Positions 1,031 to 52,309 of a stretch of DNA of 64,000 nt are shown piece by piece. A program made the position numbers and the translations under genes. The notes under the pieces were generated by a model. The model had not been told where the DNA came from, did not search any database, and saw only the letters and a list, made by a program, of their open reading frames with translations. Within the stretch, counting starts at the first letter, position 1, and each line of letters opens with the position of its first letter. This DNA is from Patescibacteria group bacterium (GTDB lineage: Bacteria; Patescibacteriota; Minisyncoccia; Minisyncoccales; JANBVM01), in the NCBI GenBank assembly GCA_024238995.1, contig JANBVL010000001.1:74059-138058 (forward strand), in the 5' to 3' direction.

Positions 1031-4000
1031 TTAAGGCACTATATTGCCTATTGCGTTAGCATAAAGCCAATAACCAGAACCTGGGTTCATATTATTGTCT
1101 ATACCTGAGACTGGATGGGCTACTGTAGAATAATTCCCATCATAACCATATACTGTTATATAACTTATTCCTGAAAGATAGGTTGAACTCTTTACTGAAT
1201 CTACTGACTTAAATCCTATTAAATTCCATCCTGAAATTACAGGATAAGTAGGTAGGGTTTCTTCTGGTCCTGGCATTTCCACACCATTAACAGTTAAAAT
1301 ATCATCATCATCTTTCATAAATATCCAATAACCTTTTCCATCTTCCATTGTGATTAAATCGCCACCGATACCAGGAATATAACTTAACCAATCTTCAATT
1401 GAAGGATCATAATATTTCACTGTATCTATGTTAGTGCTTATATCAGCTAAAACATCTTCAATAACAGAGCTCTCTGGTATCAACGGCAATGAAATTAAGT
1501 TCCAACCAGCAGATAAAGGAATATTATAAGTAGTTACTGGATCAGGTGTCATATCCATCATAACCTCTGTAAGGCTTACATTAATCGTTCCTTGAATTAA
1601 TCCATTGTTTGAATTATAAGAAGCAGTTACGATAGTCTGTCCTGCTTCATTTGAAGTCAATACTGCCGTAGCTCTTCCATTTATATCTGAAAGCGTAATA
1701 TTAGATAAAGTTCCAATTATAGCAGCAAAATTAACTACAGCACCTTCTACTGGAATACCATTATCTAATACTTGAGCTATTATCAATGCTTGGCTTGTGC
1801 CGTCAGCAGGTAAACTTGCTTTATTTGATGATACCGTAATGCTTGCTATAGTTGGATTTACTATAAAACTCCATATTTTTGTGGTCGAATTGCCAGCATT
1901 ATCAGCAACAGTCACAGTTGCTTCGTATGTGTTGGGATTTAATGGAATTTGAGGTGTATATGTTACGCTGGCAGTGCTTTTAGTAGCATAATCATCAGCG
2001 TATTCGTCACCGCTAAAAGTTAAACCCACACTGTTAATATTTACTCCTGATCCGTTTTCGTTAAATTGTGCACTAATTTCCGGCGTTGCGTCTGAAGTAG
2101 TATCGTGAAGTTCAGGAGTTAAATTAGTAATTTCCGGCGCGGTTGAATCAACTACAAATTCTGTAACACTTAATTCCGTACTTGCGTTTCCGGCGGAATC
2201 AGTAACTGTAATTGTGCAATCGCTATATGTGCCGTCCTCTAATTCGTTGAAAGTGATTGCATTCTCGCCTATAATTGCGCTAGCAGTCGCACTTAAACAA
2301 CTTCCTCCGTAAGTTATTGCTCCTGTTTCATCCGAACTAAATGTATAATCAGGCGTTGAGTCGTTTGTTAGGGTTGATACTGGAGTTACTTCTTGTAATT
2401 CTGGCGCGGTTGCATCTAGTTTTGCTAAATTTGTAGCGATCTTTACTGTTTCAGTATTACCAGCCGCATCAGCAGTAAAATATTTAATGCTATATTCTCC
2501 ATCTAAACTAATATCTATAATTGTTCCTTGCGCTGAATCTGTAGTCGGATTATTACCATCAGTTGTGTAATAAGTTTTTATCGGAGATAACTCATCGTTT
2601 GTTACGGTTAAAATAATGTCAAATGTGGCTGTCTGCCATTCTAAAGGAGTATTATCAGAAGTTGAAGGAGTTGTTTTGTCTAACAATACTGTCACAGAAT
2701 TTATTTCTTCGTTGTTCCCAGCATTATCTGTAGAATAATATCTGACATAATTAGTGCCTTCGGTGGTAACTAAAACTTCTGTTCCTGCTGTGTTCGGCGT
2801 ACAAGCGTTCGCCTGATCAACACAGTAATAGACTGTAGCCACGCCGCTAGTATCGTCATTAGCAGTTAAAGTAAATATCACATTCGTATTCTGCCAATCT
2901 GTCGAAGCATCATCAGTGGTCGCTGGAGCAGTTTTATCTAACTGTAGAGTATCAGATGCTGTTTTAATCTCCTCTAAATTGCCGGCGTTATCTTCACCTC
3001 TGTATTTAATTGCATACTTTCCATCGGTTGAGACAGTGAATTGCCAATTACTATCTTCGTCAACAAAAGATGAGGCGGTTGTTGGGTTTGTGGTATCAAT
3101 TGTGTAATAAACTTTTAAGCAACCTGAATTACCGCCTGCTGTATCATCACAACTCAAAGTTACAGTGACATCAACTGCTTGCCAACTAGCCGGTACATTG
3201 TCTATTGTTGCCGGCGCTTTTTTATCTATTTTAACTGTTCTTGAAACTGTTTCCTGAACATTTCCAGCATTATCTGTAGAAGCATATCTAAGATAAGTTA
3301 TGCCTTCGTCACTAATTATAACGGGATTAACATAATCAGTTGCGGGATCGCAATTATTATTCGTATCAGTGCAATATTTGGTTGTTGTTACTCCTGACAT
3401 TGCGTCAGTTGGAGTTAAGGTAATAGTTTGATCTTCACTCTGCCAAATATTATCTTTAGCAACGTAATTATCTGATGTTGTTGGCACAATTGTATCTTTA
3501 ACCACTGTATCAGTAACAGCATCGCCTTGATTGTCAACTTGGTCGGTTAAATAAACAGTTAAAGTTAATGTGCCGTCATTTAAACCAGTAACATTAATAT
3601 TTATAATTTGTTGATTAGTAGCTGTAATTGTTCCAGTGCTTGTTATAGTCGTGCCTCCTACCGAACTCTCTATTGAATAATTATAGCTTGCATTTTCTTC
3701 AGCGCCAGTAAAAATAAAGGAAAGTGCGGTTTGGTTGCTGTTGTTAATGTAAGATTGGTCAATGGCAACAGTATATCCCGTTGGCGCGACTCCATCGGTA
3801 ATATCCAAATTTGTTGATCCAACGGCAGAAACAACACCTTTGGTGAAATCGTACATTTTGAAACTTATAATGTAATTTGCTTGTTTGCCAATTTTGGCAT
3901 TAAAAGTTGTTGATAAACCATTAGCGCTTTCATAATCGGATTCATTAACGCCGATTAGAAATCCACCTTCTGGTCCCCAAGCTAAAACTAAATCACCTGC

Positions 4001-7000
4001 GCCAGCACTTACATAACTACGCTCTGTTGCATCAGTTACCTCTGCCGGAATATTATCACCTGAAAAAATTATTTCATTAACGGCTAATCCTGGAATTACT
4101 CCATAAAATCTTACTAAATTATCTTTTTCCGTATCCTTTACATTTCCTTGCGTTGTCACAGTTAATGAAAATTCTGCATTCTGTTTGGCAGTAGCGCCCT
4201 CAGAAGTCATTTGAAGGTTTGTGGCGTCATCAAGAATTGTTAACTGCATTTTTTCGTTGTCACCGTTTATTTTCTTTTTATCGTCAATATCATAAAACAC
4301 AAATTTAATATCATAGACGCCAACTTCGGAAATTTTGGCCTTAAAAGTTGTGGTTAAACCAACATCACTTTCATAGGCAGTTTCAGCGTCACCGATTAGA
4401 AATCCACCTTCTGGTCCCCAAGCTAAAACTAAATCATCTGCGCCAGCGCTTACATAACTACGCTCTGTTGCATCAGTTACCTCTGCCGGAATATTATCAC
4501 CCAAAAAAGTTATTTGACCAATGTCTAATCCCGGAATCACGCCATAAAATCTTACTAAATGATCATTTTGGCTGTCGCGAACATTGCCTTTGGAATTTAT
4601 TTCAACGATGAACTCCAAATCCTGCTTTCGGCTAACATCACTGGCTGTCATATGAATTAAAGTCGGAAACACAACATTGACTTTTCTGGTTACTTCTGTT
4701 GCATTATTGCCAGCTGAATCTTTAATATTATAAGTTATGGTATAAGTACCCACCATACTTGTGTCTACTGGATTGACTATAATAATGTTTGCTGTGATGT
4801 TTCCATCTGTATTATCTTCTGCTGTTGCTCCTGCGTCTGTATAAGTCTCCCCTGTTTCAATTTCCACTGAAATATTTCCTGATAATGTTATCACTGGCGC
4901 GATATTATCAATAATAAATGTATTATTAGTTGCCGTTTCGTTTGGATTACCCGCTATATCTGTACCTAAAATCATTACTGTCGCATTTCCGTCGCTTCCG
5001 GCTGGAACATCATATTGGTGAGTCCATACCATTCCACTACCAGACATTGCTGTCTCGATTAAATCTGTATCAGTTGTATCAATAGCGATTGTCGGCGCAC
5101 TAACCATTGGTTCGTTAAAAGTTGCTGTAATTTCTATGGTGTCATCATCTCTTACGGGCCTATTAGGATTATAAGTTAACGCAACCGTTGGTGCGATATT
5201 GTCAATTATATAAGAAGTTTTACCAGTGGCTGTATCATTTGGATTACCAGCCACATCAATAGCAGTGATAGAAATATCAACATCAACATCATTACTAGAT
5301 GGGACATCCCAAGTATATGTCCATACTAAATTATTTGTCTCTGTCATAGCGGCACCTGTCACAATACTGCCAATAGTAATGGCTGGCATTGGGGTTTCAT
5401 CAATATTATTTGCTTCAGTAAAGGTAGCCGTAATTCTCACTATATTAGCATCTCTAACGATGTTGTCAGGGTGGTCATCTGATAAAATGACGGTTGGATT
5501 TTTAGTGTCAATATCAAAAGCGTTTGATAAATTGCCATCCACCTGTATATTTCCCGCTACATCTGTTGCTCCGCTTACGCTTACATTAATATAGTTCATT
5601 TCTACGCCTGCATCAGCCATATTATAAGTAGCTGTATAAGTCTTATTTGAGTTTGACCATAAGTTACTTACTAATGTTAAAGTAGATTCAATTATTGGAT
5701 CAAAAACAATTATTGGAACTGAATCTGAATTCATTGTTTCGTTGTAACCAATAGCAACTGTGAATACTGTAGATATTGTAGTGTCATCAGTAATTAAATT
5801 TATGCTTGGAGTTATTGTAGTTACTATTGGATCAACTGTATCAACCTTAAAATTTCCTGCCTCATTATCAACAACCATTACATTGCCTGCAACATCTTTT
5901 GCGCCTGTTACAGAAATTGTCACAGTTTCTTCTTTATTGTTATCCGAAAGAGTAAAAGTCTCTATCCATGTAGTTCCCGATGGCCAAACACCGTCGTTTT
6001 TAGTTGTTATAGTTTCTGTTATTCCTGTAAATCCAAGAGTTGGAGTTACTGCATCCATTATTTCGCTAAATAAAACGGTTATGACCACATCTCCTGCTTT
6101 GGCAGGATTAGGATTCGCTATTGCACTGACAATAATTGGATTTAATGCATCAATATCAAAAGCGTTTGATAAATTGCCATCCACCTGTATATTTCCCGCC
6201 ACATCTGTTGCTCCACTAACAGAAATATCTACATCAACAACTTCTATACTTGCGTCAGTTACATCATAAGTAAATTCATAAATATTTGAATTTAACCAGC
6301 TTCCACCGTTATTAAATGATAAGGTAGATGAAACTTCTGGAGTAAAAGTAATTATTGGAACTGAAGTTTGATCCATTGCCTCGTTGTAATTAATTGTAAC
6401 TGTAAATGTGCCGAAACCTGCATCAACATCTGTGATTTGAGTTAAATTTGGAGTTATTAAAGATGTTTCTGGCTTTATACTGTCAATCCTAAAATCTACG
6501 TCACTTTCATCGCTCGCTGTATTACCTGCTAAATCCGCGACCACAATTTTTACTTTGACTGTTTCTGAATTAATAGCAGGCACTGTCCAAGAATATGGAC
6601 TGGTGTTTGCCAAACCTTCCTCAATAGTATTCCAAGTAGCTCCGTTATCAGTAGTGTAATGTAAGCTAATTGGATTATCTTCCAAGTTTGTATCATTAAT
6701 TTTTGTAGCGTCCCATGTAATATCTTTAGAAACTGCTCCTGCCCAAAATTCTCCCCCAATAGGCGAAGTAATAGCGCTAGCATCTACGGTCGGATCAATA
6801 TTATCAATTGTAAAAACTCCTGAGACATTATAAACATCTGAATCAAAAGTATCTCTTACTTTAATGTAAGCATTGCCATCTGCTACTTCTGTAGTGTCCC
6901 AAGGATATAAATAATTGCTACAAGGCACACTGTCAGCAAGTCTGTCAGAAACATTTCCAAAATTGTCAGTAGAATAATAAATATTAACTGTATCCCCTCC

Positions 7001-7198
7001 TTCACAGTTAGCGGTCCAAGTTATATTCTGTGTTTCGTTCCAATATTCCCCATTAATCGGAGAAGTAACAGTAATGCCTGTTACGGCCAAGGCATTAGAA
7101 ATAAAAAAACCGCTAACGATTAACATTGCGGCTAAAATAATAAAAGACCCCTGTTTAAGAATCTTTGGTTTGTTATTAATAAATATATTATTGGTCAT
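1031..7198 (-). CDS. giant 2055-aa multi-Ig-domain cell-surface protein (adhesin-like)
   Basis: Uninterrupted 6.2-kb ORF with an N-terminal signal/anchor GSFIILAAMLIVSGFFISNALA. It contains many Ig-like modules with recurrent D-x-AGN motifs. One is DUF5011/HYR-like (ETYTDAGATAEDNTDGNIT...GTYTITYNIKDSAGN) and one is Big_1-like (ITVSSNKASLPADGTSQALIIAQVLDNGIPVEG). The C-terminal domain reads GWNLISLP...GYWI...GWNLIGF...GYWLY. Confidence 0.85.
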   Translation of the reverse strand: MTNNIFINNKPKILKQGSFIILAAMLIVSGFFISNALAVTGITVTSPINGEYWNETQNITWTANCEGGDTVNIYYSTDNFGNVSDRLADSVPCSNYLYPWDTTEVADGNAYIKVRDTFDSDVYNVSGVFTIDNIDPTVDASAITSPIGGEFWAGAVSKDITWDATKINDTNLEDNPISLHYTTDNGATWNTIEEGLANTSPYSWTVPAINSETVKVKIVVADLAGNTASDESDVDFRIDSIKPETSLITPNLTQITDVDAGFGTFTVTINYNEAMDQTSVPIITFTPEVSSTLSFNNGGSWLNSNIYEFTYDVTDASIEVVDVDISVSGATDVAGNIQVDGNLSNAFDIDALNPIIVSAIANPNPAKAGDVVITVLFSEIMDAVTPTLGFTGITETITTKNDGVWPSGTTWIETFTLSDNNKEETVTISVTGAKDVAGNVMVVDNEAGNFKVDTVDPIVTTITPSINLITDDTTISTVFTVAIGYNETMNSDSVPIIVFDPIIESTLTLVSNLWSNSNKTYTATYNMADAGVEMNYINVSVSGATDVAGNIQVDGNLSNAFDIDTKNPTVILSDDHPDNIVRDANIVRITATFTEANNIDETPMPAITIGSIVTGAAMTETNNLVWTYTWDVPSSNDVDVDISITAIDVAGNPNDTATGKTSYIIDNIAPTVALTYNPNRPVRDDDTIEITATFNEPMVSAPTIAIDTTDTDLIETAMSGSGMVWTHQYDVPAGSDGNATVMILGTDIAGNPNETATNNTFIIDNIAPVITLSGNISVEIETGETYTDAGATAEDNTDGNITANIIIVNPVDTSMVGTYTITYNIKDSAGNNATEVTRKVNVVFPTLIHMTASDVSRKQDLEFIVEINSKGNVRDSQNDHLVRFYGVIPGLDIGQITFLGDNIPAEVTDATERSYVSAGADDLVLAWGPEGGFLIGDAETAYESDVGLTTTFKAKISEVGVYDIKFVFYDIDDKKKINGDNEKMQLTILDDATNLQMTSEGATAKQNAEFSLTVTTQGNVKDTEKDNLVRFYGVIPGLAVNEIIFSGDNIPAEVTDATERSYVSAGAGDLVLAWGPEGGFLIGVNESDYESANGLSTTFNAKIGKQANYIISFKMYDFTKGVVSAVGSTNLDITDGVAPTGYTVAIDQSYINNSNQTALSFIFTGAEENASYNYSIESSVGGTTITSTGTITATNQQIININVTGLNDGTLTLTVYLTDQVDNQGDAVTDTVVKDTIVPTTSDNYVAKDNIWQSEDQTITLTPTDAMSGVTTTKYCTDTNNNCDPATDYVNPVIISDEGITYLRYASTDNAGNVQETVSRTVKIDKKAPATIDNVPASWQAVDVTVTLSCDDTAGGNSGCLKVYYTIDTTNPTTASSFVDEDSNWQFTVSTDGKYAIKYRGEDNAGNLEEIKTASDTLQLDKTAPATTDDASTDWQNTNVIFTLTANDDTSGVATVYYCVDQANACTPNTAGTEVLVTTEGTNYVRYYSTDNAGNNEEINSVTVLLDKTTPSTSDNTPLEWQTATFDIILTVTNDELSPIKTYYTTDGNNPTTDSAQGTIIDISLDGEYSIKYFTADAAGNTETVKIATNLAKLDATAPELQEVTPVSTLTNDSTPDYTFSSDETGAITYGGSCLSATASAIIGENAITFNELEDGTYSDCTITVTDSAGNASTELSVTEFVVDSTAPEITNLTPELHDTTSDATPEISAQFNENGSGVNINSVGLTFSGDEYADDYATKSTASVTYTPQIPLNPNTYEATVTVADNAGNSTTKIWSFIVNPTIASITVSSNKASLPADGTSQALIIAQVLDNGIPVEGAVVNFAAIIGTLSNITLSDINGRATAVLTSNEAGQTIVTASYNSNNGLIQGTINVSLTEVMMDMTPDPVTTYNIPLSAGWNLISLPLIPESSVIEDVLADISTNIDTVKYYDPSIEDWLSYIPGIGGDLITMEDGKGYWIFMKDDDDILTVNGVEMPGPEETLPTYPVISGWNLIGFKSVDSVKSSTYLSGISYITVYGYDGNYSTVAHPVSGIDNNMNPGSGYWLYANAIGNIVP
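3951..4060. repeat. intragenic 110-bp near-identical repeat, copy 1 (partner 4392-4501)
   Basis: ccgattagaaatccaccttctggtccccaagctaaaactaaatca...ctctgccggaatattatcacc differs from copy 2 at 2 positions. The 441-bp offset equals a 147-aa tandem domain duplication (LVRFYGVIPGL...NIPAEVTDATERSYVSAGA.DLVLAWGPEGGFLIG occurs twice). Confidence 0.9.
4392..4501. repeat. intragenic 110-bp near-identical repeat, copy 2
   Basis: Direct comparison with 3951-4060 shows 2 mismatches, both transitions. Confidence 0.9.
5508..5572. repeat. intragenic 65-bp near-identical repeat, copy 1 (partner 6150-6214)
   Basis: tcaatatcaaaagcgtttgataaattgccatccacctgtatatttcccgc(t/c)acatctgttgctcc encodes SGATDVAGNIQVDGNLSNAFDID in both modules. 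The offset is 642 bp (214 aa). Confidence 0.9.
6150..6214. repeat. intragenic 65-bp near-identical repeat, copy 2
   Basis: Direct comparison with 5508-5572 shows 1 mismatch. Confidence 0.9.
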
Positions 7199-7513: not shown

Positions 7514-7575
7514 AACGTCGTACAACATAGATTATGCGACACAAAACAGGGCTTTGAGTCCTCGCTCATAGATTG
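7514..7575. repeat. intergenic repeat family, copy A (short form)
   Basis: aacgtcgtacaacatagattatgcgacacaaaacagggctttgagtcctcgctcatagattg. It shares the GTCG(C/T)ACAACATAG head and the AGGGCTTTGAnTCCTCGCTCATAGATT module with copies at 9993-10120 and 11072-11160. Confidence 0.85.
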
Positions 7576-7590
7576 TAAGACATAAAATCA

Positions 7591-7613
7591 TACAATTTAT
7601 CTTGTGAGAAGTA
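7591..7613. repeat. left arm of perfect 23-bp inverted repeat
   Basis: tacaatttatcttgtgagaagta is the exact reverse complement of 8378-8400. Confidence 0.95.
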
Positions 7614-7636
7614 TACAGATCTAATTGTATTTTAGG

Positions 7637-8170
7637 TTAAGCTTTCTTTGACAATTTAGAGATAATCTTTTTAGAAAGCAAATCTGCTGGTTTAGAAACT
7701 TTTTTTAATTTATTTATTGTATATCCAGTATCTCTTGTGTCTAAACTTTGCAGGTGTAGTTTATTCCTTTCGATTCTAACATAGTTTATTTGTTTAAATT
7801 CGCTGGGAGTTATAATTTTATTTCTTTTTAAATAGCGATTTAAAATTTCAAAGGTGACCCCTTTGTCGTCTATGTTTATATTTTTTTTAATTTTTTTACA
7901 TATAAAAACAGCGTCTTCCTTGAAGACATTGCGGGGAATTTGATGCAAACCTTTAAATTCATCTTTTACGCCAACTATATTTCCTGTCTTTTTACTGTAC
8001 ATCTTTACTAATTGATAAACCATTCCTTCTATTATTGTACAAATCAATACAGTTGCTGATCTAAAATAGGCGGACTTTGCTACATTACTTATTCCTTTTT
8101 TATTAGCTTGTTCGAGATAAACAGCAATAGCGGTTGCTCTCCTTTTTATATTTTGCCAGAAAGTCTTCAT
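7637..8170 (-). CDS. hypothetical helical protein (weak HEPN-like hint only)
   Basis: 177-aa ORF whose start overlaps the upstream small ORF by 4 nt (ATGA). The segment VRIERNKLHLQ gives an R-x6-H / R-x3-H spacing that is only loosely HEPN-like. No family recognised. Confidence 0.5.
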   Translation of the reverse strand: MKTFWQNIKRRATAIAVYLEQANKKGISNVAKSAYFRSATVLICTIIEGMVYQLVKMYSKKTGNIVGVKDEFKGLHQIPRNVFKEDAVFICKKIKKNINIDDKGVTFEILNRYLKRNKIITPSEFKQINYVRIERNKLHLQSLDTRDTGYTINKLKKVSKPADLLSKKIISKLSKKA

Positions 8171-8352
8171 TTTTTAATGCTTTTCTCTGCACGAGATAAT
8201 GCCTTACTCAAGGAAGGAAGACCTTTTTCCTTAAGGTAGTTCCCGAGTTTTTTATCAGAACGTGCAGCAAAATCGACGCCATATTGTTTCTCAATGGTAC
8301 CTATTTTAGTATCGGCTCTTTTTCGCCTAAATTGTGATTTTTTACTAGCCAT
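8167..8352 (-). CDS. small basic protein (61 aa), translationally coupled to 7637-8170
   Basis: ORF-track protein MASKKSQFRRKRADTKIG... has a 4-nt stop/start overlap with the downstream gene. An inward-facing TTGTGA-18-TAAAGT promoter-like sequence lies partly inside the right inverted repeat. Confidence 0.5.
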   Translation of the reverse strand: MASKKSQFRRKRADTKIGTIEKQYGVDFAARSDKKLGNYLKEKGLPSLSKALSRAEKSIKK

Positions 8353-8377
8353 ATGTTTTACTTTATCATAAAAATTC

Positions 8378-8400
8378 TACTTCTCACAAGATAAATTGTA
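8378..8400. repeat. right arm of perfect 23-bp inverted repeat
   Basis: tacttctcacaagataaattgta is the reverse complement of 7591-7613. It is followed by cgac, so 8396-8404 ttgtacgac mirrors gtcgtacaa at 7517-7525. Confidence 0.95.
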
Positions 8401-8450
8401 CGACTTTCATTATCCTATCTTAAATATTGTTTCGGATAAAAATATGGGTT

Positions 8451-8870
8451 TTAAAAATTTTGTAGTTCTCTTAGCTCTTTTTTTCCATTTTTACTTAATA
8501 CTCCTTCTCCATATAATTTCCATAGCAAAACTTTATTCTTGAGATAGTTGTGGTGATTTTCGTTAGTTACAGAATATAATATTTCGCCGATATCTGCTTT
8601 CGGACCTATAATCTCGAAAGGCATGTCTTCTAAGTATAGGGAATCTTTTCTTCTGACTTCAAACGTATTACATTCTTTACCACCTATAACTTCTGAATGT
8701 TTTTTAATTCTATCGTTTGAATTCCAATTAAAATAAGGTAAAATTTTTATTTTTAAAACAAATTCCCTAATAATTTCTTCCTTGGAGAAATCTTCTTTAT
8801 CTATTCTTATAATTAGAGAATAAATATGCTCATCTTTATCGCGTTTTTTTGTTTTATATCCTATATACAT
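8451..8870 (-). CDS. hypothetical protein (139 aa)
   Basis: Clean ORF with no signal peptide and no recognisable family. Confidence 0.5.
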   Translation of the reverse strand: MYIGYKTKKRDKDEHIYSLIIRIDKEDFSKEEIIREFVLKIKILPYFNWNSNDRIKKHSEVIGGKECNTFEVRRKDSLYLEDMPFEIIGPKADIGEILYSVTNENHHNYLKNKVLLWKLYGEGVLSKNGKKELRELQNF

Positions 8871-8968
8871 AATATAATTTTATTTCTTTTAGTTAATCTC
8901 TGCTTGGGTTTTTCGGTATACACCATCAATCTCTCTTAGTCAGAATTATTCTTATTAATTAAAATGAA

Positions 8969-9871
8969 TTATTTTATTTTTTCTTGACGAACAATTTTAA
9001 ATCCTTTTTCTTGTACTTTTTTGATAAAATCATTCTTATATTCTTCTGATTTCTCGTTAACCGCTTGATTTAAAAGCAATGATCTCAATTCTGTTCCTGT
9101 ATTAGAAAATACAAGCAAGCCGAAGTCAAATTTTTTTGTCTTTTGTGGACCATCGTAAGTTATTAAAAATAAATCACCAGCAATATTTAAAGATAGAGGC
9201 TTTGAAACTAACAGATCTATGTCATATAAAAGACTAGATGATTGATTAAATATTCCTACATTTGACAAATCAAGGTAATTCATAAAATCAAGATTATACT
9301 TTTTTAATGATTCTTCAGCTGTGAAGCCTAACCTTATAACCCCTATCTTAGTAGAAATAGCAATAAATTTTAAAAAATCTTGTAAATTTTTTTGAGAAAG
9401 ATATTTAACTATCTCTAAAGTTTGATAAGAAAAGCTTCCTGGTTTTTGAATTTCGCCTGATAGGATTTTAGCTAAAACGTCTTGTAGTCTTTCTCTACTT
9501 ACATTTTGTGCCACATCTAGAAATCTCATAGTCCAATCTTTTTCAACCGGCGCTTCAGAGACGGCTTTTCCTTCTAAATCGTTTCGTGTTTTAACTATAA
9601 TATTTTCGAGATTAATTTGTTTATTATATTGTTCTAGTGCAAACCTTTTCTCTGCGCGCCCAAGTATCTTAATTGCTTTTTCTTGTCCCTCTGCTTGGGC
9701 AATAATTTTTTGTTTCTCTACTTCGGCTTCTGCTTGTCCAATCCTTTTTATTTTTTCAGTATCAAATTCAAATATACGATTACCAACAACGCCTATTCCT
9801 TCAGAGATAGTCTCAATTAATTTCTTTAATGGTTTTTCTAAACCAATAATATCTTTTATCGACGTATTCAT
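8969..9871 (-). CDS. DUF2806-like protein
   Basis: EKDWTMRFLDVAQNVSRERLQDVLAKILSGEIQKPGSFSYQTLEIVKYLSQKNLQDF matches from memory the DUF2806 signature (KDW..RF...A..VS.E..Q.LWAKILAGE...PGSFS.RTL). Confidence 0.6.
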   Translation of the reverse strand: MNTSIKDIIGLEKPLKKLIETISEGIGVVGNRIFEFDTEKIKRIGQAEAEVEKQKIIAQAEGQEKAIKILGRAEKRFALEQYNKQINLENIIVKTRNDLEGKAVSEAPVEKDWTMRFLDVAQNVSRERLQDVLAKILSGEIQKPGSFSYQTLEIVKYLSQKNLQDFLKFIAISTKIGVIRLGFTAEESLKKYNLDFMNYLDLSNVGIFNQSSSLLYDIDLLVSKPLSLNIAGDLFLITYDGPQKTKKFDFGLLVFSNTGTELRSLLLNQAVNEKSEEYKNDFIKKVQEKGFKIVRQEKIK

Positions 9872-9992
9872 ATTTTTTTATATTTTAGCACTTTCAAACC
9901 ATCTTTAAAAATACAGAAATTCAATGTAATAAGCGTATGTCGATTATCGAAAAAATATAAGATTTTGGTGTAATTTTGGCGTAACTCTAATT

Positions 9993-10120
9993 AAGGTCGC
10001 ACAACATAGAAAGTCCTCATTCGTTAATGTTGGTATATTCATTTTTTTTAAGGGCTTTGATCCCTCGTCCATAGATTATGCGACACAAAACAGGGCTTTG
10101 AATCCTCGCTCATAGATTGG
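9993..10120. repeat. intergenic repeat family, copy B (long form, two tandem modules)
   Basis: aaggtcgcacaacatag + aaagtcctcattcgttaatgttggtatattca + T8 + agggctttgatccctcgtccatagatt + atgcgacacaaaac + agggctttgaatcctcgctcatagatt + ggtcgcc. Confidence 0.85.
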
Positions 10121-10201
10121 TCGCCAAAAATATACCTTACGCGACATTTATTTCCTCAACTTCGGGCTAAATTTTATTATTATGATTTTTGTTCCGCGAG
10201 T

Positions 10202-10759
10202 TTACCATTTTTCCCAATGTATATTGTTTTCCTTGAATTTGTCTTTTGGCGATTGGTTTTTTTTAACCGGTACGCCAATCGGAATAACATTTAAAGGAAT
10301 AACATATTCAGGGACTCCTAGAATATTCTGAACATTTTTAACTAATGCCTCGGCGGGAAAAACCGCGGTCCAAACCGCGCCATAACCCAAAGCATGAGCG
10401 GCTAATAAAATATTTTCTGAGGCGGCTGAGCAGTCCTGAACCCAAAAATCTTTAAGTAATGACTTAATTGTCACTTTGAGCACAAAATTTAAAAGCTTTG
10501 ATTTGTCGGGTAGACCGCAAACCACAATGGCCGCGTCGGCTTTTGAAAGCATTTTGGCGTAAGGCAGTTTTTTACAAAGCGCGTCTAAAGTTTCCCGTTT
10601 GGTCACAACGACAAATGACCAGGGCTGTCGATTAGCGGCCGATGGCGCCGACATCGCTGCTTTTAACATCGTCAACAAATCCTCTTTTTTAATCTCATCC
10701 CCCGTGAATTCCCGGACGCTATGGCGAGTAAGAATGTTTTTTAAAGCTTCGTTTTCCAT
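10202..10759 (-). CDS. nitroreductase-family oxidoreductase
   Basis: TRHSVREF...APSAANRQPWSFVVV...AAHALGYGAVW are typical FMN nitroreductase-fold motifs. Confidence 0.85.
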   Translation of the reverse strand: MENEALKNILTRHSVREFTGDEIKKEDLLTMLKAAMSAPSAANRQPWSFVVVTKRETLDALCKKLPYAKMLSKADAAIVVCGLPDKSKLLNFVLKVTIKSLLKDFWVQDCSAASENILLAAHALGYGAVWTAVFPAEALVKNVQNILGVPEYVIPLNVIPIGVPVKKNQSPKDKFKENNIHWEKW

Positions 10760-10775
10760 AAAATATTAAACGTGA

Positions 10776-10931
10776 TTATTTATTTTTCCAGTTATTATAT
10801 TCTTCCCAAGTTATAGCATACTTTTCTCTGCATTTTTCAGAACATTTTTCTTCGTCTTCTGAAAAGATGCTAAACCTATTTTCAAATGATGCTCCAGAGC
10901 AAGTACCAAGACAAGCATCAAATCTAATCAT
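10776..10931 (-). CDS. possible small Cys-containing protein (51 aa)
   Basis: Below the track cutoff. My translation is MIRFDACLGTCSGASFENRFSIFSEDEEKCSEKCREKYAITWEEYNNWKNK. Its ATG overlaps the stop of the upstream mini-ORF (ATGA). Confidence 0.3.
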   Translation of the reverse strand: MIRFDACLGTCSGASFENRFSIFSEDEEKCSEKCREKYAITWEEYNNWKNK

Positions 10932-11026
10932 ATTTCTATTATAAACGTTTTGATTTTGTAAATAAAAACTACAACATCTAAAGCTGCTGTAGTAGAAAAG
11001 AAGATAACTAACGCTTTCTTGTTCAT
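10928..11026 (-). CDS. possible 32-aa hydrophobic peptide
   Basis: My translation is MNKKALVIFFSTTAALDVVVFIYKIKTFIIEI. A TTGACA-17-TAAAAA promoter-like sequence lies on the minus strand at 11035-11063. Confidence 0.2.
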   Translation of the reverse strand: MNKKALVIFFSTTAALDVVVFIYKIKTFIIEI

Positions 11027-11071
11027 ATTATTACTTTTTATGTTTTAAAAAGTGACTTGTCAATAATGAAA

Positions 11072-11160
11072 AACGTCGCACAACATAGAAAGTCCTCATT
11101 CGTTAATGTTGGTACATTCAATTTTTTTTAAGGGTCTCAACTCCTCATCCATAGATTGTA
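11072..11160. repeat. intergenic repeat family, copy C (one long module)
   Basis: aacgtcgcacaacatagaaagtcctcattcgttaatgttggtacattcaattttttttaagggtctcaactcctcatccatagattgta is near-identical to the first 70 bp of copy B. Confidence 0.85.
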
Positions 11161-11170
11161 CGGACTTATT

Positions 11171-11197
11171 AAAAAACCACTGACCTCTAGCCAGTGG
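11171..11197 (-). terminator. Rho-independent terminator candidate
   Basis: Minus strand reads ccactggctagaggtcagtgg followed by tttttt. The stem is 6 bp (ccactg/cagtgg), directly 3' of the 11202-11624 gene. Confidence 0.55.
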
Positions 11198-11201: not shown

Positions 11202-11624
11202 TCACCTCCACAACAGCTTAATTTTATGAATAACATCCCTAATAAACTGCCAGAGCCTGTCAAGAAATCCTGGTAATTCTTTTTTTACTTCTTCTTTCTC
11301 TTGTTCAAACTCTTGTTCAATAATTTCTTGTCTAATTTCTATCTCCTGCTCTATCCTAGGACCAAAAAAGTTTTTAACTTTTAACCAGACGTTTGTGTAA
11401 GCCCAGTCATACATTTTCTGCCACATTGGCAGAACTTTTCCATACCAAAGCTCTTTAACGACACCAGGTAAATCTCTTTTGCCAATTTCCAAAACCTCCT
11501 CCCCCATTTGCTGAGCTTGTTCAAAAGTTTCTGGCACTTCAATAATAATATCATCCTGGGCAAAAGAAAAGCCTGATAAAACTAGATTAAAAAGTATAAA
11601 AAGTGTTAAAAATCGTTTTTTCAT
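11202..11624 (-). CDS. secreted hypothetical protein (140 aa)
   Basis: Signal peptide MKKRFLTLFILFNLVLSGFSFA. The rest is Glu/Gln-rich and helical. There is a 4-nt overlap with gltX. Confidence 0.6.
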   Translation of the reverse strand: MKKRFLTLFILFNLVLSGFSFAQDDIIIEVPETFEQAQQMGEEVLEIGKRDLPGVVKELWYGKVLPMWQKMYDWAYTNVWLKVKNFFGPRIEQEIEIRQEIIEQEFEQEKEEVKKELPGFLDRLWQFIRDVIHKIKLLWR

Positions 11625-13210
11625 TGTAATAATTCTTTGGCTTGATTAATCCTTTTTAAAGTCTGCTCTTTCCCTAAAATCTCAGCAATTTCAAAAGGTG
11701 GAGCTGAAGACTTCTGGCCTGTTAGAGCAACTCTTAAAGGCCAAAGCAAATATCCCCTATCTTCAATGCTTTTTATCTTTTTACCAAATTTTTCTGATTC
11801 TTGTAAGAGAATATCTGTTAATTTCTGCAAATCAAACTCTTCTTCTTTTAAATCAGACAATATTTTATTACTCCTATCCAACGCTCTTAATACTTCCTGC
11901 TCTGACATGTCTTTCCATTTCAATAAATCTTTATCGTAATCAAGATTTTTTTTGAAAAAGAAATCAACAAATTCTGGAAGATCAGAAAGTTTTTTTAATC
12001 TTTCCTGATAAATTGAAACGATCTTTGATAAAACATCAAAAGTAATCGGTTTTTTTGTCTGAGTGATTTTAAATTTGTTGATTATTTCTTTTCCTCCATA
12101 AGCAGGTGGAAATTGAATTTGCTTGAATTCTAGTTCAATCAAACTATTTTGAATTAAATGTGGAATGCAAAGTTCTGTTAATTTATTGATAGGTTTTTGC
12201 CTGATATAGACACCGTTTAAGAAATCTAATCTTTTCGTGTTAAACACTGCTCCTGATTTTTGAACTTTTTCCAAAGAAAATTCTTTAATCAAAGCATCCA
12301 AAGAAAATATTTCTTTATTAGTATCAGGATTCCAGCCTAAAAAAGCTAAAAAGTTATTCAAAGCTTCAGGCAAATAGCCAAGCTCTTTATACTCTATCAC
12401 TGAAGCTGCTCCATGTCTTTTTGAAAGCTTGCTTTTATCAGAACCTAAAATCAAAGGCAAATGAGCATATTTAACTTTTGGAAAACCTAAAGCTTTCTGA
12501 AGAAGGATTTGTCTTGGAGTATTAGAAATATGTTCCTCTCCCCTTATGACATGAGTTATTTTCATTTCAAAATCATCAATAACACAAGCAAAATTATATA
12601 AAGGCATAGCATCATCTCTGGCAATAACAGTATCCCCCATTAAAGCACTATCAATCTCTATTTTCCCTCTTATTAAATCATTAAACTCTATTTTCTTTGG
12701 AGCAATCATGAATCTGTAAACAAACTTCTTTTTTTGTTTTAAATTATCTTCAACTTCTTGTTCTGATAAACCAGCGCATTTTCCTGAATAACGAGGAGCT
12801 TGGCCTATTGATAATTGATATTCTTTTTGGATCTTCAATTCTTCCTCTGAACAAAAACAATGATAAGCTTTTTTTTCATCTAAAAGCTTCTCCAAATATT
12901 TCTCGTAAATCTCTTTTCTTTCTGACTGCCTGTATGGTCCATAATTTCCATCAATAGCAGGGCCTTCATCAGGCGAAATGCCAAGCCATTTTAAACTTTC
13001 AATAATATTATCTTCATAAACAGGCTTTGACCTTTCTTTATCAGTGTCTTCAATCCTTAAAACAAAAATCCCATTGTTTTGTTTGGCAAATAAGTAATTA
13101 AATAAAGCAGTCCTTGCTCCTCCAACATGGAAAAAACCAGTAGGAGAAGGAGCTATCCTTGCTCTTACTGCGCCTGCTTTAGTTAGCTTTAATTCTTCTT
13201 GAGAGTTCAT
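11621..13210 (-). CDS. gltX: glutamyl-tRNA synthetase
   Basis: RIAPSPTGFFHVGGARTALFNYLFA carries the HIGH-type motif and KLSKRHGA the KMSKS-type motif. The length of 529 aa fits. Confidence 0.95.
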   Translation of the reverse strand: MNSQEELKLTKAGAVRARIAPSPTGFFHVGGARTALFNYLFAKQNNGIFVLRIEDTDKERSKPVYEDNIIESLKWLGISPDEGPAIDGNYGPYRQSERKEIYEKYLEKLLDEKKAYHCFCSEEELKIQKEYQLSIGQAPRYSGKCAGLSEQEVEDNLKQKKKFVYRFMIAPKKIEFNDLIRGKIEIDSALMGDTVIARDDAMPLYNFACVIDDFEMKITHVIRGEEHISNTPRQILLQKALGFPKVKYAHLPLILGSDKSKLSKRHGAASVIEYKELGYLPEALNNFLAFLGWNPDTNKEIFSLDALIKEFSLEKVQKSGAVFNTKRLDFLNGVYIRQKPINKLTELCIPHLIQNSLIELEFKQIQFPPAYGGKEIINKFKITQTKKPITFDVLSKIVSIYQERLKKLSDLPEFVDFFFKKNLDYDKDLLKWKDMSEQEVLRALDRSNKILSDLKEEEFDLQKLTDILLQESEKFGKKIKSIEDRGYLLWPLRVALTGQKSSAPPFEIAEILGKEQTLKRINQAKELLQ

Positions 13211-44992: not shown

Positions 44993-45061
44993 AATTGTAT
45001 ATTATGTTTGTAAGATAGCTTTATTTTCAAAAAATTTCAAGTATAAAAAATCTATCAATTT

Positions 45062-45745
45062 TTAAAGCAATTTGAACTTATTTATCACCAACCCAAACTT
45101 ATAGCCTAAGTGTTTTGCTGCTTTTCGGCAGTAAATCATTCTATCAGTAAAAATCTCAAAGTATTCCATTACAGGAACAAAATTAGTGTCAATTTTTAAA
45201 GTTAAGCTAATGTTTTTTACTTTTTTATTAATTCCAAGCTTTGAAAATTCAGTAGCATAATTAACCCTGTCATGAATATCAGTTTTAATGTCATTAACAT
45301 TATTGGAATTTACCCTTGAGCGACGAACATCTGATTTATCAGCTAAAATGACAACAGCTGAAACAGAGCTTGGTAACTCAATATCTTCGTGTTTAGGTAG
45401 AATATCTTCTTTATCATGAAAAGTAATTGCCTGCATAATTAAAGCCAGTTCTTCAGGTAAAAAATCATCTTTAAATACTTGGCTAAAAAGCATGGAACCA
45501 AGGTAATTATGATGGCTTCTGCTTAAAAAATTACCCATGTCATGACAAAAGCCAGCAATAGCTGATAGTTCCTGTTTTTGAGTTGAAAGACCTATTTCTT
45601 TTGCAATTGTTCTTGCCCTATCAGCCACTAAACTTGAATGCTCTAAACCATGTTCAGTATAACCTGATTTTTTTAAAACATTTTCAGTTTGTTTAATAAA
45701 TTCTAAAATGTATGGATTTTTTTTGACTTCAGTTAAAGTAATCAT
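45062..45745 (-). CDS. HD-domain phosphohydrolase
   Basis: LEHSSLVA...GFCHDMGN contains the H...HD metal-binding motif. Confidence 0.8.
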   Translation of the reverse strand: MITLTEVKKNPYILEFIKQTENVLKKSGYTEHGLEHSSLVADRARTIAKEIGLSTQKQELSAIAGFCHDMGNFLSRSHHNYLGSMLFSQVFKDDFLPEELALIMQAITFHDKEDILPKHEDIELPSSVSAVVILADKSDVRRSRVNSNNVNDIKTDIHDRVNYATEFSKLGINKKVKNISLTLKIDTNFVPVMEYFEIFTDRMIYCRKAAKHLGYKFGLVINKFKLL

Positions 45746-45972
45746 ATTCTCTTTAAAATTTCTAAATACTGCTTAGGATTAATCCCAAGAATTCTTAAGT
45801 TATTTCGGATAACAAAAATCGGTAGCTCTTTATCTCGAGGAACAACTACCGGTCTTTTTAAATCTTCTCGCCAATATATTCGGTGGTCTCCTTTTTCTCT
45901 TTTGAAATAACAACCTACAAATAAAAGAAATTTTTCAAACTTTTTATAATTGATGGGCGTCAAACGAGCCAT
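45742..45972 (-). CDS. hicA: HicA-family mRNA interferase toxin
   Basis: 76 aa. KGDHRIYWRED..RPVVVPRDKELPIFVIRNNLRILGI is a YcfA/HicA-like pattern. Confidence 0.78.
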   Translation of the reverse strand: MARLTPINYKKFEKFLLFVGCYFKREKGDHRIYWREDLKRPVVVPRDKELPIFVIRNNLRILGINPKQYLEILKRI

Positions 45973-45978
45973 ACTTTA

Positions 45979-46311
45979 TCATACTGAAACCTGAACAGTT
46001 TCAGATTCTTGAGAGATAATTATTGGCGGAACCCATTCTTTTTGGCTTTTTTTCCAACCCAATCCTTGCAGGACTTCTTCTAGTGTGCCTTTTTTAACAA
46101 GCTCTTCAAAAAAAATATTAACGATTTCTATAAATCGTTTTTTAGCTTCCTCATAGCTCTTGCCTGAAGTAGATAAATCAAGGGTTGGTGTATAGGCAAT
46201 AAATCTTTTACCCTCTCGAAGCATAGAAACTGAAAGTTTAAATTCTAGTTTAGTTTTTCTCATATTTTTTAATTCCGAAAGAATTAAGATTATGAGACGA
46301 TTTCGTCTCAT
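45979..46311 (-). CDS. hicB: HicB-like antitoxin (start likely MRKTKLEF at 46263)
   Basis: REGKRFIAYTPTLDLSTSGKSYEEAKKRFIEIVNIFFEEL has the HicB/UPF0150 N-domain pattern. It lies directly upstream of hicA. Confidence 0.68.
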   Translation of the reverse strand: MRRNRLIILILSELKNMRKTKLEFKLSVSMLREGKRFIAYTPTLDLSTSGKSYEEAKKRFIEIVNIFFEELVKKGTLEEVLQGLGWKKSQKEWVPPIIISQESETVQVSV

Positions 46312-46384
46312 GTTCTTATTATATTACGTTTAAAGCTTATGTCAATTTAAAAAATTTAAAACAATCATATTTTTATGCTTTTAA

Positions 46385-47668
46385 TTATTCTAACAAATCT
46401 TGCGTTGTTGTTGAAAGCGCTCCTCTTGTATAAAAGTTTTCTGGGCTCCAGATCATGAAACCAGAAAAATCATCTTTTAAAGCATCTTGAACTGCATTAA
46501 TTTCTAACCTCACTTCCTCTTCCCCATATTCAGCTCCTAAATCAAAATCCTGAAGCCATGGCCTTAACTTGGCTTGTGTTGAAGTGGTAGTTTTAAAAGC
46601 ATTAAGTTTAAACAAGCCAGCTTCCATTGCATTTTTAACTACCTCATAAGGATACTCAGCCGGATTGTCATATCCAATGTAACCTTGGGCATAATGAGAA
46701 GGATAAACCATTGGAGAAACAAAATCAAAATACTGATAAGCATGTTCAATTTTTTGACCAATTCCCAAATCAGATATTTCAGTAGAAAGTCCAAAAAGAT
46801 CAGCTGACAAAACAGCATTAGGAAGCTTTTCTCTTAAATAAGAATAAAAGCCTTTAATCACTGAAATTCTTGTAGTGCCGGTGCTATTCCATAAAGAAAA
46901 ACTTAAATCCCCTAAATCACCGTCAGAAGGAAAACGAATATAGTCAAAATTCAACTCATCAAAGCCCTGATTTAAAACATCTCTAGCAATAGCAATATTA
47001 TAATCCCATGCTTCTTCGCTTGATGGATCAATCCAGGCCAAACCCATCTTATCAAGCCAAAGCAAAGAGTCATCTGATTTCCTCTTCACTGCTAAATCAG
47101 GCCTTGACCAAGCTAGAATAGGATCCTGGAAAACACTAATTCTGGCAATAGTATAAATTCCATTTTTGTGAAATTTCTCAACTAAAGCTTTAACATCTGG
47201 AATTAAATATCTTTCAGCATTATATTCTTCAACCTCAGCAACCTCAGTATTATAGCTTACATAACCTGACCAGTCTTTGATATCAATCACAACAGCATTA
47301 ATCTCTGTGTTTTTAGCCAAATCAATCACATAATTAGTCATATAAGGACTAGCTGCTGACCAAGCAGTTAAATAAACTGCTTTTATTATTTCAGGCGCCT
47401 GAAAACCTGATTTTTCAATTTCGAGTTCAGTACTAGTAGCTGTTTTAGAAACAATTACAGAAAGAATTTCTTTTTCAGTAATCTCTTCTTCAACAATTTC
47501 TTGCTCTTCAACATGTTCTTCAGATTCATATTCTTGATATTCCTGCTGCTCTGGCAAAAAAACAGACTCATAAACATTAACAAAAGAATCTTTAAGAAAA
47601 AACAATACTATAAAAAACAAAAAAATTACAAAATACTGATTTTTAAGCAAGTCTTTAACGCTCTTCAT
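46385..47668 (-). CDS. putative glycoside hydrolase, DUF4015 (GHL) TIM-barrel family
   Basis: IKAVYLTAWSA...NAVVIDIKDWSGYVSY...IYTIARISVFQD...LAWIDPSSEEAWDYNIAIARDVLNQGFDELNFDYIRFP matches the DUF4015 pattern. An N-terminal TM anchor is present. Confidence 0.78.
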   Translation of the reverse strand: MKSVKDLLKNQYFVIFLFFIVLFFLKDSFVNVYESVFLPEQQEYQEYESEEHVEEQEIVEEEITEKEILSVIVSKTATSTELEIEKSGFQAPEIIKAVYLTAWSAASPYMTNYVIDLAKNTEINAVVIDIKDWSGYVSYNTEVAEVEEYNAERYLIPDVKALVEKFHKNGIYTIARISVFQDPILAWSRPDLAVKRKSDDSLLWLDKMGLAWIDPSSEEAWDYNIAIARDVLNQGFDELNFDYIRFPSDGDLGDLSFSLWNSTGTTRISVIKGFYSYLREKLPNAVLSADLFGLSTEISDLGIGQKIEHAYQYFDFVSPMVYPSHYAQGYIGYDNPAEYPYEVVKNAMEAGLFKLNAFKTTTSTQAKLRPWLQDFDLGAEYGEEEVRLEINAVQDALKDDFSGFMIWSPENFYTRGALSTTTQDLLE

Positions 47669-48026
47669 TTTTCAAGTTTTTGAATAAAAAAACAGCCTTT
47701 AATTATTAGGTTGTTTTTTAATATTCTAATTTTATTCCTAATTTGTCTGCAATTTGTTTTATCCATTTTTCATGACGATTCACTTTATATGATAAAATAA
47801 GCATTTCTTAAAAATAAGCATCAGCTCTTTTCGCATAAGCATCAACAGAAATTTGAAGCTCTGAAAAACTGTTTAACATTTCTTCTTTAAAAGACAAAAA
47901 ATCTTCTTTGGTGGCAAAGACTTCTTTATTAGCTTCAATTATTCTCTGTATATCTTTATCAGTAAGCATATTAATTTTCCTCTACTCATTTTTATTATAA
48001 CTTGTAAAGTAATCGTGTCAAACTTT

Positions 48027-50149: not shown

Positions 50150-50285
50150 AATTCTTTTTTTGCTTATTTTTTTTAGATTTTAAAATATCACTTACAAATT
50201 GTGTAAATTCTTCTTTATGATTAGGATTCGGCTCAAACTTTATAATCAGTTTAGTTTGTTTCTTTCTTTTCTGTCTTTTTGCCAT
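50124..50285 (-). CDS. small basic ORF (53 aa) overlapping the recombinase start; KFEPNP family
   Basis: My translation is MAKRQKRKKQTKLIIKFEPNPNHKEEFTQFVSDILKSKKNKQKKNYEKSSNLR. The first roughly 35 aa parallel ORF 60593-60784. Confidence 0.4.
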   Translation of the reverse strand: MAKRQKRKKQTKLIIKFEPNPNHKEEFTQFVSDILKSKKNKQKKNYEKSSNLR

Positions 50286-50299
50286 AATTTTGTTAAGGT

Positions 50300-50354: not shown

Positions 50355-50385
50355 ATTTTAATTATCTATGCCAACCTTTTAATTA

Positions 50386-50940: not shown

Positions 50941-50944
50941 TATT

Positions 50945-51289: not shown

Positions 51290-51333
51290 GGATTATATCA
51301 GTATATAGAAAGCAATTAAAATAGGAAGAAAAT

Positions 51334-52302: not shown

Positions 52303-52309
52303 AGAAAAC

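Follow-up and report, generated by a model that had tools for sequence, protein, structure and literature searches.

Three intergenic repeat copies in a Patescibacteria genome as probable composite junctions in a tandem array of Xer/dif-type core sites

What are the short repeats that separate a handful of accessory genes near gltX in a Patescibacteria group bacterium? The stretch analysed here, called the window, comprises 64,000 nt of contig JANBVL010000001.1 (assembly GCA_024238995.1, positions 74,059 to 138,058) from a metagenome-derived, Paceibacteria-like organism. An initial annotation had described three copies, A, B and C, of a modular intergenic repeat at 7514-7575, 9993-10120 and 11072-11160. 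As possible origins it had proposed recombination or attachment scars, a miniature inverted-repeat transposable element (MITE)-like family with CATAGATT termini, or 3′-end RNA structures. Here each of the three copies is interpreted as a composite junction within a tandem array, in which seven tyrosine-recombinase core sites of Xer/dif type all point the same way. We assign this interpretation a probability of about 0.7.

All three copies are found at the positions given, with copy B extending to 10125 and copy C to 11165. In the 64-kb window the head sequence GTCGYACAACATAG has three exact occurrences, against 0.20 expected at up to two mismatches, and the tail AGGGYYTNNANNCCTCRYYCATAGATT has four, against 0.01 expected. 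The copies are confined to 7514-11165, and the sole other related site is at 56341-56367. Modules are common to the copies, as had been reported: B and C have 62-90 nt in common at ~92% identity, and copy A matches the second half of copy B over 61 nt at 90% identity. The gene content between the copies is also as first described, i.e., a two-gene set flanked by inverted repeats, a 139-aa orphan, a DUF2806 protein, a nitroreductase and a 51-aa open reading frame (ORF).

Important is the hexanucleotide CATAGA, which is found seven times, at 7526, 7567, 10005, 10070, 10111, 11084 and 11150 (S1-S7, Table 1). All seven are directly oriented, with spacings of 41, 2438, 65, 41, 973 and 66 nt. CATAGA is the invariant 6-bp centre of every junction (7/7) and reads TCTATG in the orientation of gltX. 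The 20-nt flanks fall into a few classes. On the left side, S1, S3 and S6 display the arm (A)ACGTCGYACAA, and S2, S4, S5 and S7 display GGGCTTTGAnnCCTCGyy (L2). On the right side, S1 and S4 enter a 41-bp unit beginning with TTATGCGAC, S3 and S6 enter a 65-bp unit beginning with AAGTCCTCATTCG, and S2, S5 and S7 have in common just a 9-10-nt arm, TTGTAAGAC, TTGGTCGCC and TTGTACGGAC, respectively. Left and right classes reassort freely, and at all seven junctions the similarity switches exactly at the CATAGA core. CATAGATT is therein a common crossover core and not the terminus of an element.

The canonical arms GTCGYACAA and TTRTRCGAC are inverted repeats of each other. Thus S1 is a complete 9-6-9 site with palindromic arms, and in sequence this is how core sites of tyrosine recombinases, dif among them, are built. 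Two inverted arms of 9-11 bp around a centre of 6-8 bp are displayed by S1, by two sites with another centre within the first cassette (X1 and X2), and by the site at 56341. These four are the matches in the window to the pattern TCRYACAA-N6-TTGTRYGA with at most one mismatch, where 0.00 are expected. Each composite junction has canonical arms at both ends and one or two short units (41 bp, 65 bp) between them, and each short unit ends in its own CATAGA.

With all cores identical and direct, recombination between any two of them would excise the intervening DNA as a circle with one complete site, and the reverse reaction would insert such a circle. The accessory genes would thereby be partitioned into cassettes that are gained or lost as units. 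The predicted circular junctions are GTCGCACAA-CATAGA-TTGTAAGAC for cassette 1 and GTCGCACAA-CATAGA-TTGGTCGCC for cassette 2, and the predicted empty-site forms are GTCCGTACAA-TCTATG-TTGTGCGAC without the 65-bp unit and a junction of copy A with copy C. On the simplest account, repeated integration and excision of circular DNA would have given rise to the hybrid junctions, the two short units and the exchangeable cassettes, and the sites may still be active. No recombinase is found among the cassette genes, which comprise 2-4 small accessory genes per cassette without replication or transfer functions; because of this, the enzyme would most likely be a host Xer acting in trans.

There is no xer gene within the window. 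The source scaffold (L083) extends past the left edge of the window, and its xer module is found ~6 kb beyond that edge, ~10 kb from the repeat array. The module consists of a mirrored half site with a hairpin, a 62-aa ORF, a promoter, a full site, the gene for a 318-aa recombinase, a terminator and AACGTCGCACAATATTAA, in that order. The best matches of the recombinase are XerD/XerC at E ~1e-65, with scores below the XerC and XerD equivalog cut-offs, and it matches XerD in the PDB at 3e-40. The full site in the xer leader, ATGTCGCACAA-TGATGG-TAAAGCGAC, is dif-like and has the arm GTCGCACAA. The source genome thereby encodes an Xer-family gene with a matching site: the arm of the xer-linked sites recurs unchanged as the repeat head, with AACGTCGCACAA identical at 12/12 positions.

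The same type of module recurs among 80 species-level relatives retrieved via GltX. In ~80 Paceibacteria loci the recurrent order is gltX, a small secreted protein that is the counterpart of the 140-aa ORF of the window, a promoter with a full site, xer, a terminator and a half site. The relatives' xer gene encodes a XerC/D-family recombinase of ~320 aa, and its leader displays a sigma-70-like promoter followed by the full site GTCGCAMAA-T(R)(W)(W)GG-TWAAGCGAC. The half site after the terminator is AATGTCGCACAATATTAA or AATGTCGCACAA-TATTAA. In the 80 relatives the arm 9-mer is present 44-50 times in the 6 kb downstream (terminus side) of gltX vs twice in the 6 kb upstream. The full xer-leader site is found within three mismatches in 17/46 loci vs 0.4% of random segments, and most other loci have the lineage variant TTCGCATAA-N6-TTWAnCGAA instead of GTCGCACAA-N6-TWAAGCGAC. 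In the variant-site lineages (among L005-L078) Xer is only 58-62% identical, and the outermost base of both arms is altered in concert, from G...C to T...A. From the sequences, such a concerted change would be expected of a symmetric site co-evolving with its binding protein.

In 33 of 37 relatives GC skew changes sign at this locus, from +0.09 to -0.12, and coding-strand use flips from 97% plus to 88% minus across gltX-xer; thus the gltX-xer locus is the replication terminus. In the source organism the cumulative GC skew of the joined sequence is maximal at the xer-linked site. The array itself was considered as the terminus and ruled out, as GC skew is uniformly negative in the window and turns at xer, outside it. 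The array occupies one replichore, at a distance of 10-14 kb from the best dif candidate; it is part of ~12.5 kb that part the small protein from xer in this genus and not in most other Paceibacteria. Also within these ~12.5 kb are the giant adhesin and a GmrSD/NsnA-like segment; a further full site, GTCGTACAA-GTTATC-TTGTGCGTC, bounds this segment and precedes the GmrSD/NsnA-like defence gene (L083 11451-11474). The same arm is found in the relative L089 at 12980-12994 with the reverse-complement centre GATAAC. Several centres coexist in one terminus region in the manner of “compatibility groups”: TCTATG, TTTATC/GTTATC, TATAYC, TATTAA and TGATGG.

The xer module shows additional features. The dif-like site and xer are bracketed by mirrored blocks of ~60 nt, each with a half site (TTAATATTGTGCGACAT or ATGTCGCACAATATTAA) and a terminator-like hairpin with a conserved loop. 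The dif-xer unit thus looks like a module bounded by inverted repeats, and it is conserved across genera. In L017, the mirrored half site and the dif-like site are separated by a G+C-rich non-coding stretch of ~450 nt with its own TTGACA/TATAAT promoter (12713-13190), for which Rfam gives no match at the gathering threshold. Within the array, an arm-like half site, CTTACGCGACATTTATT, is present 10 nt inside cassette 2 (10136-10152, plus strand); by eye, it is similar to the xer module's mirrored half site TTGTGCGACATTTATT.

In most relatives the full site is located between the promoter and the start codon of xer, and cassette genes have repeat heads on their upstream side. A similar placement is known for difSL, for which autoregulation has been speculated (PMC1914069). 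The arms might then be operators for a regulator, either Xer as an autorepressor or another factor, positioned before accessory genes, and their coincidence with cassette boundaries would be secondary. We consider this quite unlikely. Operators do not need identical 6-bp centres, and such a role predicts neither the reassortment of flanks at the centre, nor presence/absence breakpoints there, nor a distribution specific to the terminus.

The breakpoints are evident from a comparison of genomes. Among genus-level relatives, whose GltX is 72-76% identical, each genome has a different content in the slot from the small protein to the adhesin. L089/L090 (76% GltX identity for L089) displays, where copy C lies in the window, an uninterrupted site, ATCCGTGCAA-TCTATG-TTGTGCGAC-GTT, which immediately follows the conserved terminator. 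Downstream of it, L089 has other genes and two more sites with other centres, and a promoter-like sequence, TTGACCTTTT..GA.AGAATA.AGTTATTTTGAAA, is seen before two successive cassettes (12078-12115 and 13107-13145). In L093 the site is ATCCGTATAA-TCTATG-ATGAACGAC, followed by different genes. The slot is empty in L091, where TTCGTGCAA-TCTATG-TTGTGCGAC is found after the adhesin block, at the point where gene orientation flips; no xer is present at this locus, and there is little sequence past the TCTATG site. S7 is orthologous to the ATCCGTGCAA-TCTATG of L089, L093 and L091, and the terminator of the 140-aa gene is kept in the same three genomes. Copy C corresponds to the L089 site with 59 nt and a second TCTATG interposed. 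Related genomes do differ by whole units of the genes enclosed by the copies, a synteny check that the initial annotation had called for.

A metagenome scan for the unit-plus-core pattern revealed two loci, L085 and L086. L086 is 94-98.6% identical to the window, and in it position 7575 is joined directly to position 10070. It is without cassette 1, one 65-bp unit and one 41-bp unit (2.5 kb), and the junction is at a core. For the giant protein, L086 keeps the promoter region together with residues 1-44 (94% nt identity), and the body cannot be aligned (L086 1-2374); since just these 44 residues are shared, L086 represents a distinct population. The nitroreductase cassette of L086 is 98.5% identical vs 94% for the chromosomal flank. 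The L086 junction and the uninterrupted L089 site are consistent with products of excision or integration, and homologous recombination or assembly collapse fit them too. Logan contigs for each cassette break at common 31-mers, as expected of repeats, and show no alternative junctions.

The repeats could also be passively duplicated intergenic sequence, with cassettes gained and lost by homologous recombination between direct repeats of 40-60 nt and no dedicated recombinase involved. The stretches that copies A and B (61 nt) and B and C (62-90 nt) have in common are long enough for RecA-dependent deletion, and the L086 junction falls inside a repeated unit. However, passive duplication gives no reason for the same 6 bp and an arm of the xer palindrome at every boundary. 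It leaves unexplained the 24-bp uninterrupted orthologous site in L089, L093 and L091, and also the finding of the 41-bp unit beside unrelated cargo in other genera and of a perfect site in a viral contig, both described below. It is thus regarded as improbable, though less so than the operators considered above.

Outside the genus, the 41-bp unit is present in L085, an otherwise unrelated genome, together with the junction CATAGATTGTAAGAC, which is that of S2. The identity is 97%, forming a near-identical 61-nt copy, and the neighbouring cassette is of a radical-SAM/HEPN type. Diverged homologues of the 41-bp unit are found near xer and beside unrelated cargo in L017 (E=1e-14, same core) and L009 (5e-6); in L009 the full-site centre is TATGGA and the unit ends in TGATGGAT. 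The 65-bp unit was found in the source genome only.

Viral sequences carry similar sites. The viral contig L117 displays a perfect GTCGTACAA-TCTATG-TTGTGCGAC in a 500-nt non-coding gap, a pattern of which far less than one copy would be expected by chance; the 13.7 kb of L117 examined contain no recognisable integrase. In the window, the right half of the site at 56341 is the exact reverse complement of the head AACGTCGCACAA, and the chromosomal array of L089 has the near-identical ATCTCACAA-TATACC-TTGTGCGAC. The non-coding gaps that hold full sites (window 56234-56682, L117 4895-5390 and L017 12700-13200) have the site alone in common. Furthermore, the body of the 41-bp unit matches phage tail-region ORFs in IMG/VR contigs, at 28/28 nt in L116 and at 38/44 nt in L114 and L115, where the end is CGTAGA. 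We suggest that earlier integrations left behind the 41- and 65-bp units, as relics or as hybrid half-sites, at least one of them phage-derived. A viral scan with TCTCACAA-N6-TTGTGCGAC gave nine matches, a chance-level, uninformative outcome: six stem from a single conserved coding region and three are singletons.

Two observations concern the phage-related sequences themselves. Translated in the plus frame, the 41-bp unit reads YATQNRALSPRS*, with the TAG of CATAGA as stop; where they match, the ORFs of the phage contigs code for ATQNRAL. The window from 45000 to 64000 is phage-like: it encodes a large serine recombinase (48557-50149; phrog_95, 4e-94), a methyltransferase-like protein (50386-50940), the terminase large subunit (54689-56233) and a primase-like protein (60088-60663). 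The G+C-richer non-coding gap of 450 nt at 56234-56682, upstream of the terminase, contains the Xer-type site.

To what extent could the copies be MITE-like elements or RNA structures, the two other origins proposed at first? In favour, the copies are short, intergenic and located 3′ of genes, and unrelated L085 has the near-identical 61-nt copy. They nevertheless occupy a single locus in the 64-kb window and lack transposon-type terminal inverted repeats and target duplications, and CATAGA is inside the canonical arms, not outside an element. At the RNA level, the caacat...atgttg pairing and the T8 run that had been pointed out are both present, and the predicted folding is not better than that of shuffled sequence. 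No Rfam family matches at the gathering threshold in the window and seven relatives, or at E<=1 in the array, and at the sites in the window and in 18 loci ARAGORN detects neither tRNA nor tmRNA. After these searches an RNA gene was no longer considered as an integration target. Single-strand DNA folding of all copies, on both strands, gives z values from -0.55 to +0.22, similar to shuffled sequence, so that attC, hairpin and terminator readings were set aside. A terminator scan detected none inside the copies, and the terminator of the 140-aa gene is a separate hairpin. The repeat copies thus do not display a structured RNA or an intrinsic terminator, and MITE-like elements or 3′-end RNA structures are largely refuted and appear very unlikely. 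Of the origins first proposed, recombination or attachment scars stand, specifically as Xer/dif-type core sites, and this assignment supersedes the earlier statement that the repeats belong to no known class.

Integron-like sites were also considered, as co-oriented, promoter-poor cassettes are each followed by a repeat of 60-130 nt, and the outermost arms of each composite are inverted repeats. In this case an integron integrase would recombine the composite repeats as attC-type sites in folded, single-stranded form. However, there is no intI, and the nearby recombinase scores 93 bits on the integron-integrase model vs a cut-off of 265. The single strands fold like shuffled sequence on both strands, and the internal cores are direct, not inverted, so that no attC-like hairpin is possible. 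With neither IntI nor attC hairpins found, this explanation is effectively refuted and is the least probable of those discussed.

Several points weigh against the array of Xer/dif-type sites. Five of the seven sites have one canonical arm only and may be inert, and the second-class flanks (L2 and R2) are mutually direct, not inverted, unlike recombinase arms. With just 41 and 65 bp, the short units cannot have existed as circles, so that the model does not account for them. The array centre TCTATG differs from the TGATGG of the dif candidate at 4/6 positions, so the array is not simply “integrated at dif”; the position of the TCTATG site in L091 hints that it may be the true dif in this genus. 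The putative enzyme is assigned by arm identity and proximity only, as the window has no recombinase of this family. The structure of L086 could have come from RecA-dependent deletion between the two 41-bp units, or from assembly collapse, and the scan of viral contigs for an L2-CATAGA-R2 donor junction gave zero matches. In addition, the HEPN-like module of cassette 1 has homologues elsewhere without flanking sites: there are 17 homologues, and in the three contexts inspected (L111-L113) none has flanking arm sites or inverted repeats, and the same module was not found between sites in different replicons. Finally, xrs-flanked cassettes of Acinetobacter were not excised by Xer in reported assays (PMC11705084), and thus flanking sites do not prove mobility.

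The cassettes and the other features are listed in Table 1. The HEPN-like gene and the 61-aa ORF are flanked by 30-nt inverted repeats that hold X1 and X2 (TCTCACAA-GATAAA-TTGTAYGA). Discrete modules are thus enclosed by two Xer-type sites, with X1/X2 around the HEPN-like pair and CATAGA sites around cassettes 1 and 2. A search of the cargo with PADLOC and NCBIfam gave the out-of-window GmrSD/NsnA-like gene as sole match. In other Patescibacteria, homologues of the HEPN-like gene with its small ORF are followed by G+C-richer non-coding stretches of 200-300 nt that end in terminators and may be a non-coding RNA belonging to the pair; two such pairs occur in L111, in a region rich in restriction and defence genes. 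Among relatives, the giant Big/beta-helix surface protein (window 1031-7198) is hypervariable, and its counterparts there have 2195-2411 aa (L089 15230-; L091 12316-18903), and its upstream region is conserved.

Table 1. Coordinates of the core sites, short units, cassettes and associated features (window positions unless a locus is named).
Feature	Position	Strand	Description
S1, complete core site	7517-7540	+	GTCGTACAA-CATAGA-TTATGCGAC: left arm, centre, right arm
Copy A 41-bp unit	7526-7566	+	core and right arm TTATGCGAC at start; L2 flank GGGCTTTGAGTCCTCGCT at end
S2	7567-7581	+	CATAGA and right arm TTGTAAGAC; outer boundary of cassette 1
Cassette 1	7582-9995	-	HEPN-like, 61-aa, 139-aa orphan, DUF2806; absent from L086
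X1	7587-7610	-	same arm family, other centre: TTCTCACAA-GATAAA-TTGTATGAT on minus strand
HEPN-like protein	7637-8170	-	177 aa; weak HEPN match
61-aa ORF	8167-8352	-	
X2	8381-8404	+	TTCTCACAA-GATAAA-TTGTACGAC; inverted vs X1
139-aa orphan	8451-8870	-	
DUF2806 protein	8969-9871	-	300 aa
S3, head of copy B	9996-10010	+	left arm GTCGCACAA and CATAGA
Copy B 65-bp unit	10005-10069	+	core, AAGTCCTCATTCG..., T8 run, L2-type flank
S4 core and copy B 41-bp unit	10070-10110	+	
S5	10111-10125	+	CATAGA and degenerate right arm TTGGTCGCC; cassette 2 boundary; junction kept in L086
Cassette 2	10126-11074	-	nitroreductase, 51-aa ORF, TTGACA box
Nitroreductase	10202-10759	-	
51-aa ORF	10776-10931	-	
TTGACA box	11058-11063	-	
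S6, head of copy C	11075-11089	+	left arm GTCGCACAA and core
Copy C 66-bp unit	11084-11149	+	unit and one core, the excess over the uninterrupted L089 site
S7	11150-11165	+	core and right arm TTGTACGGAC; adjoins terminator of 140-aa gene
Intrinsic terminator of 140-aa gene	11171-11197	-	CCACTGGCTAGAGGTCAGTGG then T6; distinct from copy C
140-aa secreted protein	11202-11624	-	conserved gltX neighbour, anchors locus; blastp E=5e-7 to L013 counterpart
Phage-region site	56341-56367	+	GTCTCACAA-TATATC-TTGTGCGAC-GTT; beside terminase gene
318-aa XerC/D-family protein	L083 13582-14538		outside window
xer modules with mirrored blocks	L083 13193-14600; L095 9379-11013; L017 12654-14395		
Matches to 41-bp unit in phage	L116 336-363; L114 9053-9092; L115 3885-3924		
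G+C-richer stretches after HEPN-like pairs	L111 5510-5700; L112 5520-5790; L113 4640-4810, 5560-5750		

Patescibacteria, or bacteria of the candidate phyla radiation (CPR), have tiny genomes with few recognisable mobile elements, and to our knowledge no system for chromosome dimer resolution has been described in them. A literature search found no paper that ties CPR or Patescibacteria to dif or Xer. The locus is a concrete dif/xer candidate for an entire class within the CPR, and it marks the zone near the terminus as a place where strain-specific genes are swapped, among them a surface adhesin, defence-like genes and orphans. If a housekeeping recombinase does drive the exchange, it would explain the flexibility of reduced genomes that lack integrases, and the plasmid dif modules of Acinetobacter, for which the mechanism of mobilisation is debated, would gain in the array a chromosomal counterpart with direct repeats. 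A wider role is conceivable, although we hold it to be rather doubtful: Paceibacteria may have at the terminus an Xer-driven, integron-like platform for gene capture, comprising a dif-xer module and a direct array of dif-like sites with a private centre, with the 41-bp unit as a cassette-associated partner. Such a platform would exchange accessory and defence cassettes, and phage DNA with site mimics, among co-occurring CPR populations via the housekeeping recombinase only. The motif GTCGCACAA-N6-... can be used now to find termini and variable islands in CPR metagenome bins.

In comparison with known systems, the array is not a clean member of any of the integrative mobile elements exploiting Xer (IMEX), the plasmid dif (pdif) or xrs modules, or the difSL systems, and its reiterated-core units are without a described counterpart. 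A functional similarity to integrons is seen in the ordered, small, co-oriented and mostly promoter-poor cassettes, each delimited by a recombination site; the array differs in having no IntI and no attC hairpins, with sites that are double-strand and palindromic-arm. In the XerS/difSL system a single xer gene, which has a terminator to itself, is directly preceded by a dif site at the terminus (PMC1914069). The same site-xer-terminator layout is present in the source genome and its relatives, and it likens their module to the single-module systems for dimer resolution, among them also XerH/difH and XerL/dif. However, this likeness concerns the neighbouring xer module and not the repeats, the CPR protein is nearest to XerD/XerC and not to XerS, and the CPR module is also bracketed by the mirrored ~60-nt blocks of half site and hairpin.

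The Acinetobacter pdif and xrs modules are similar in that small adaptive or toxin-antitoxin-like genes are located between Xer-type sites of 28 bp. Most xrs pairs are inverted (PMC11705084), as is the X1/X2 pair around the HEPN-like module. The array differs in being chromosomal and near the terminus, not plasmid-borne, and in having seven direct sites with identical centres. The same module in different replicons was not found among the HEPN-like homologues, and only the 41-bp unit is shared, with L085.

IMEX form arrays at dif, e.g., CTXphi, RS1 and TLCphi at dif1 of Vibrio cholerae. The cassettes described here resemble IMEX in that they encode no integrase, have dif-like sites with the arms of the host site as boundaries, and are in tandem in the terminus region, and they would likewise rely on Xer; the viral contig L117 carries a mimic of the site. 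They differ from IMEX in size (1-2.5 kb), in having no replication, transfer or virion genes, in junctions with additional 41- and 65-bp units and reiterated cores, and in a Patescibacteria host. Their centre is also unlike that of the best dif candidate, so that integration at dif would apply if TCTATG is the true dif. A precedent is found in the Legionella element LME-1, which is located at dif with XerL: there, mobile DNA pointed to a previously undescribed dif/Xer system (PMC9765430), and the array described here may do the same for Patescibacteria.

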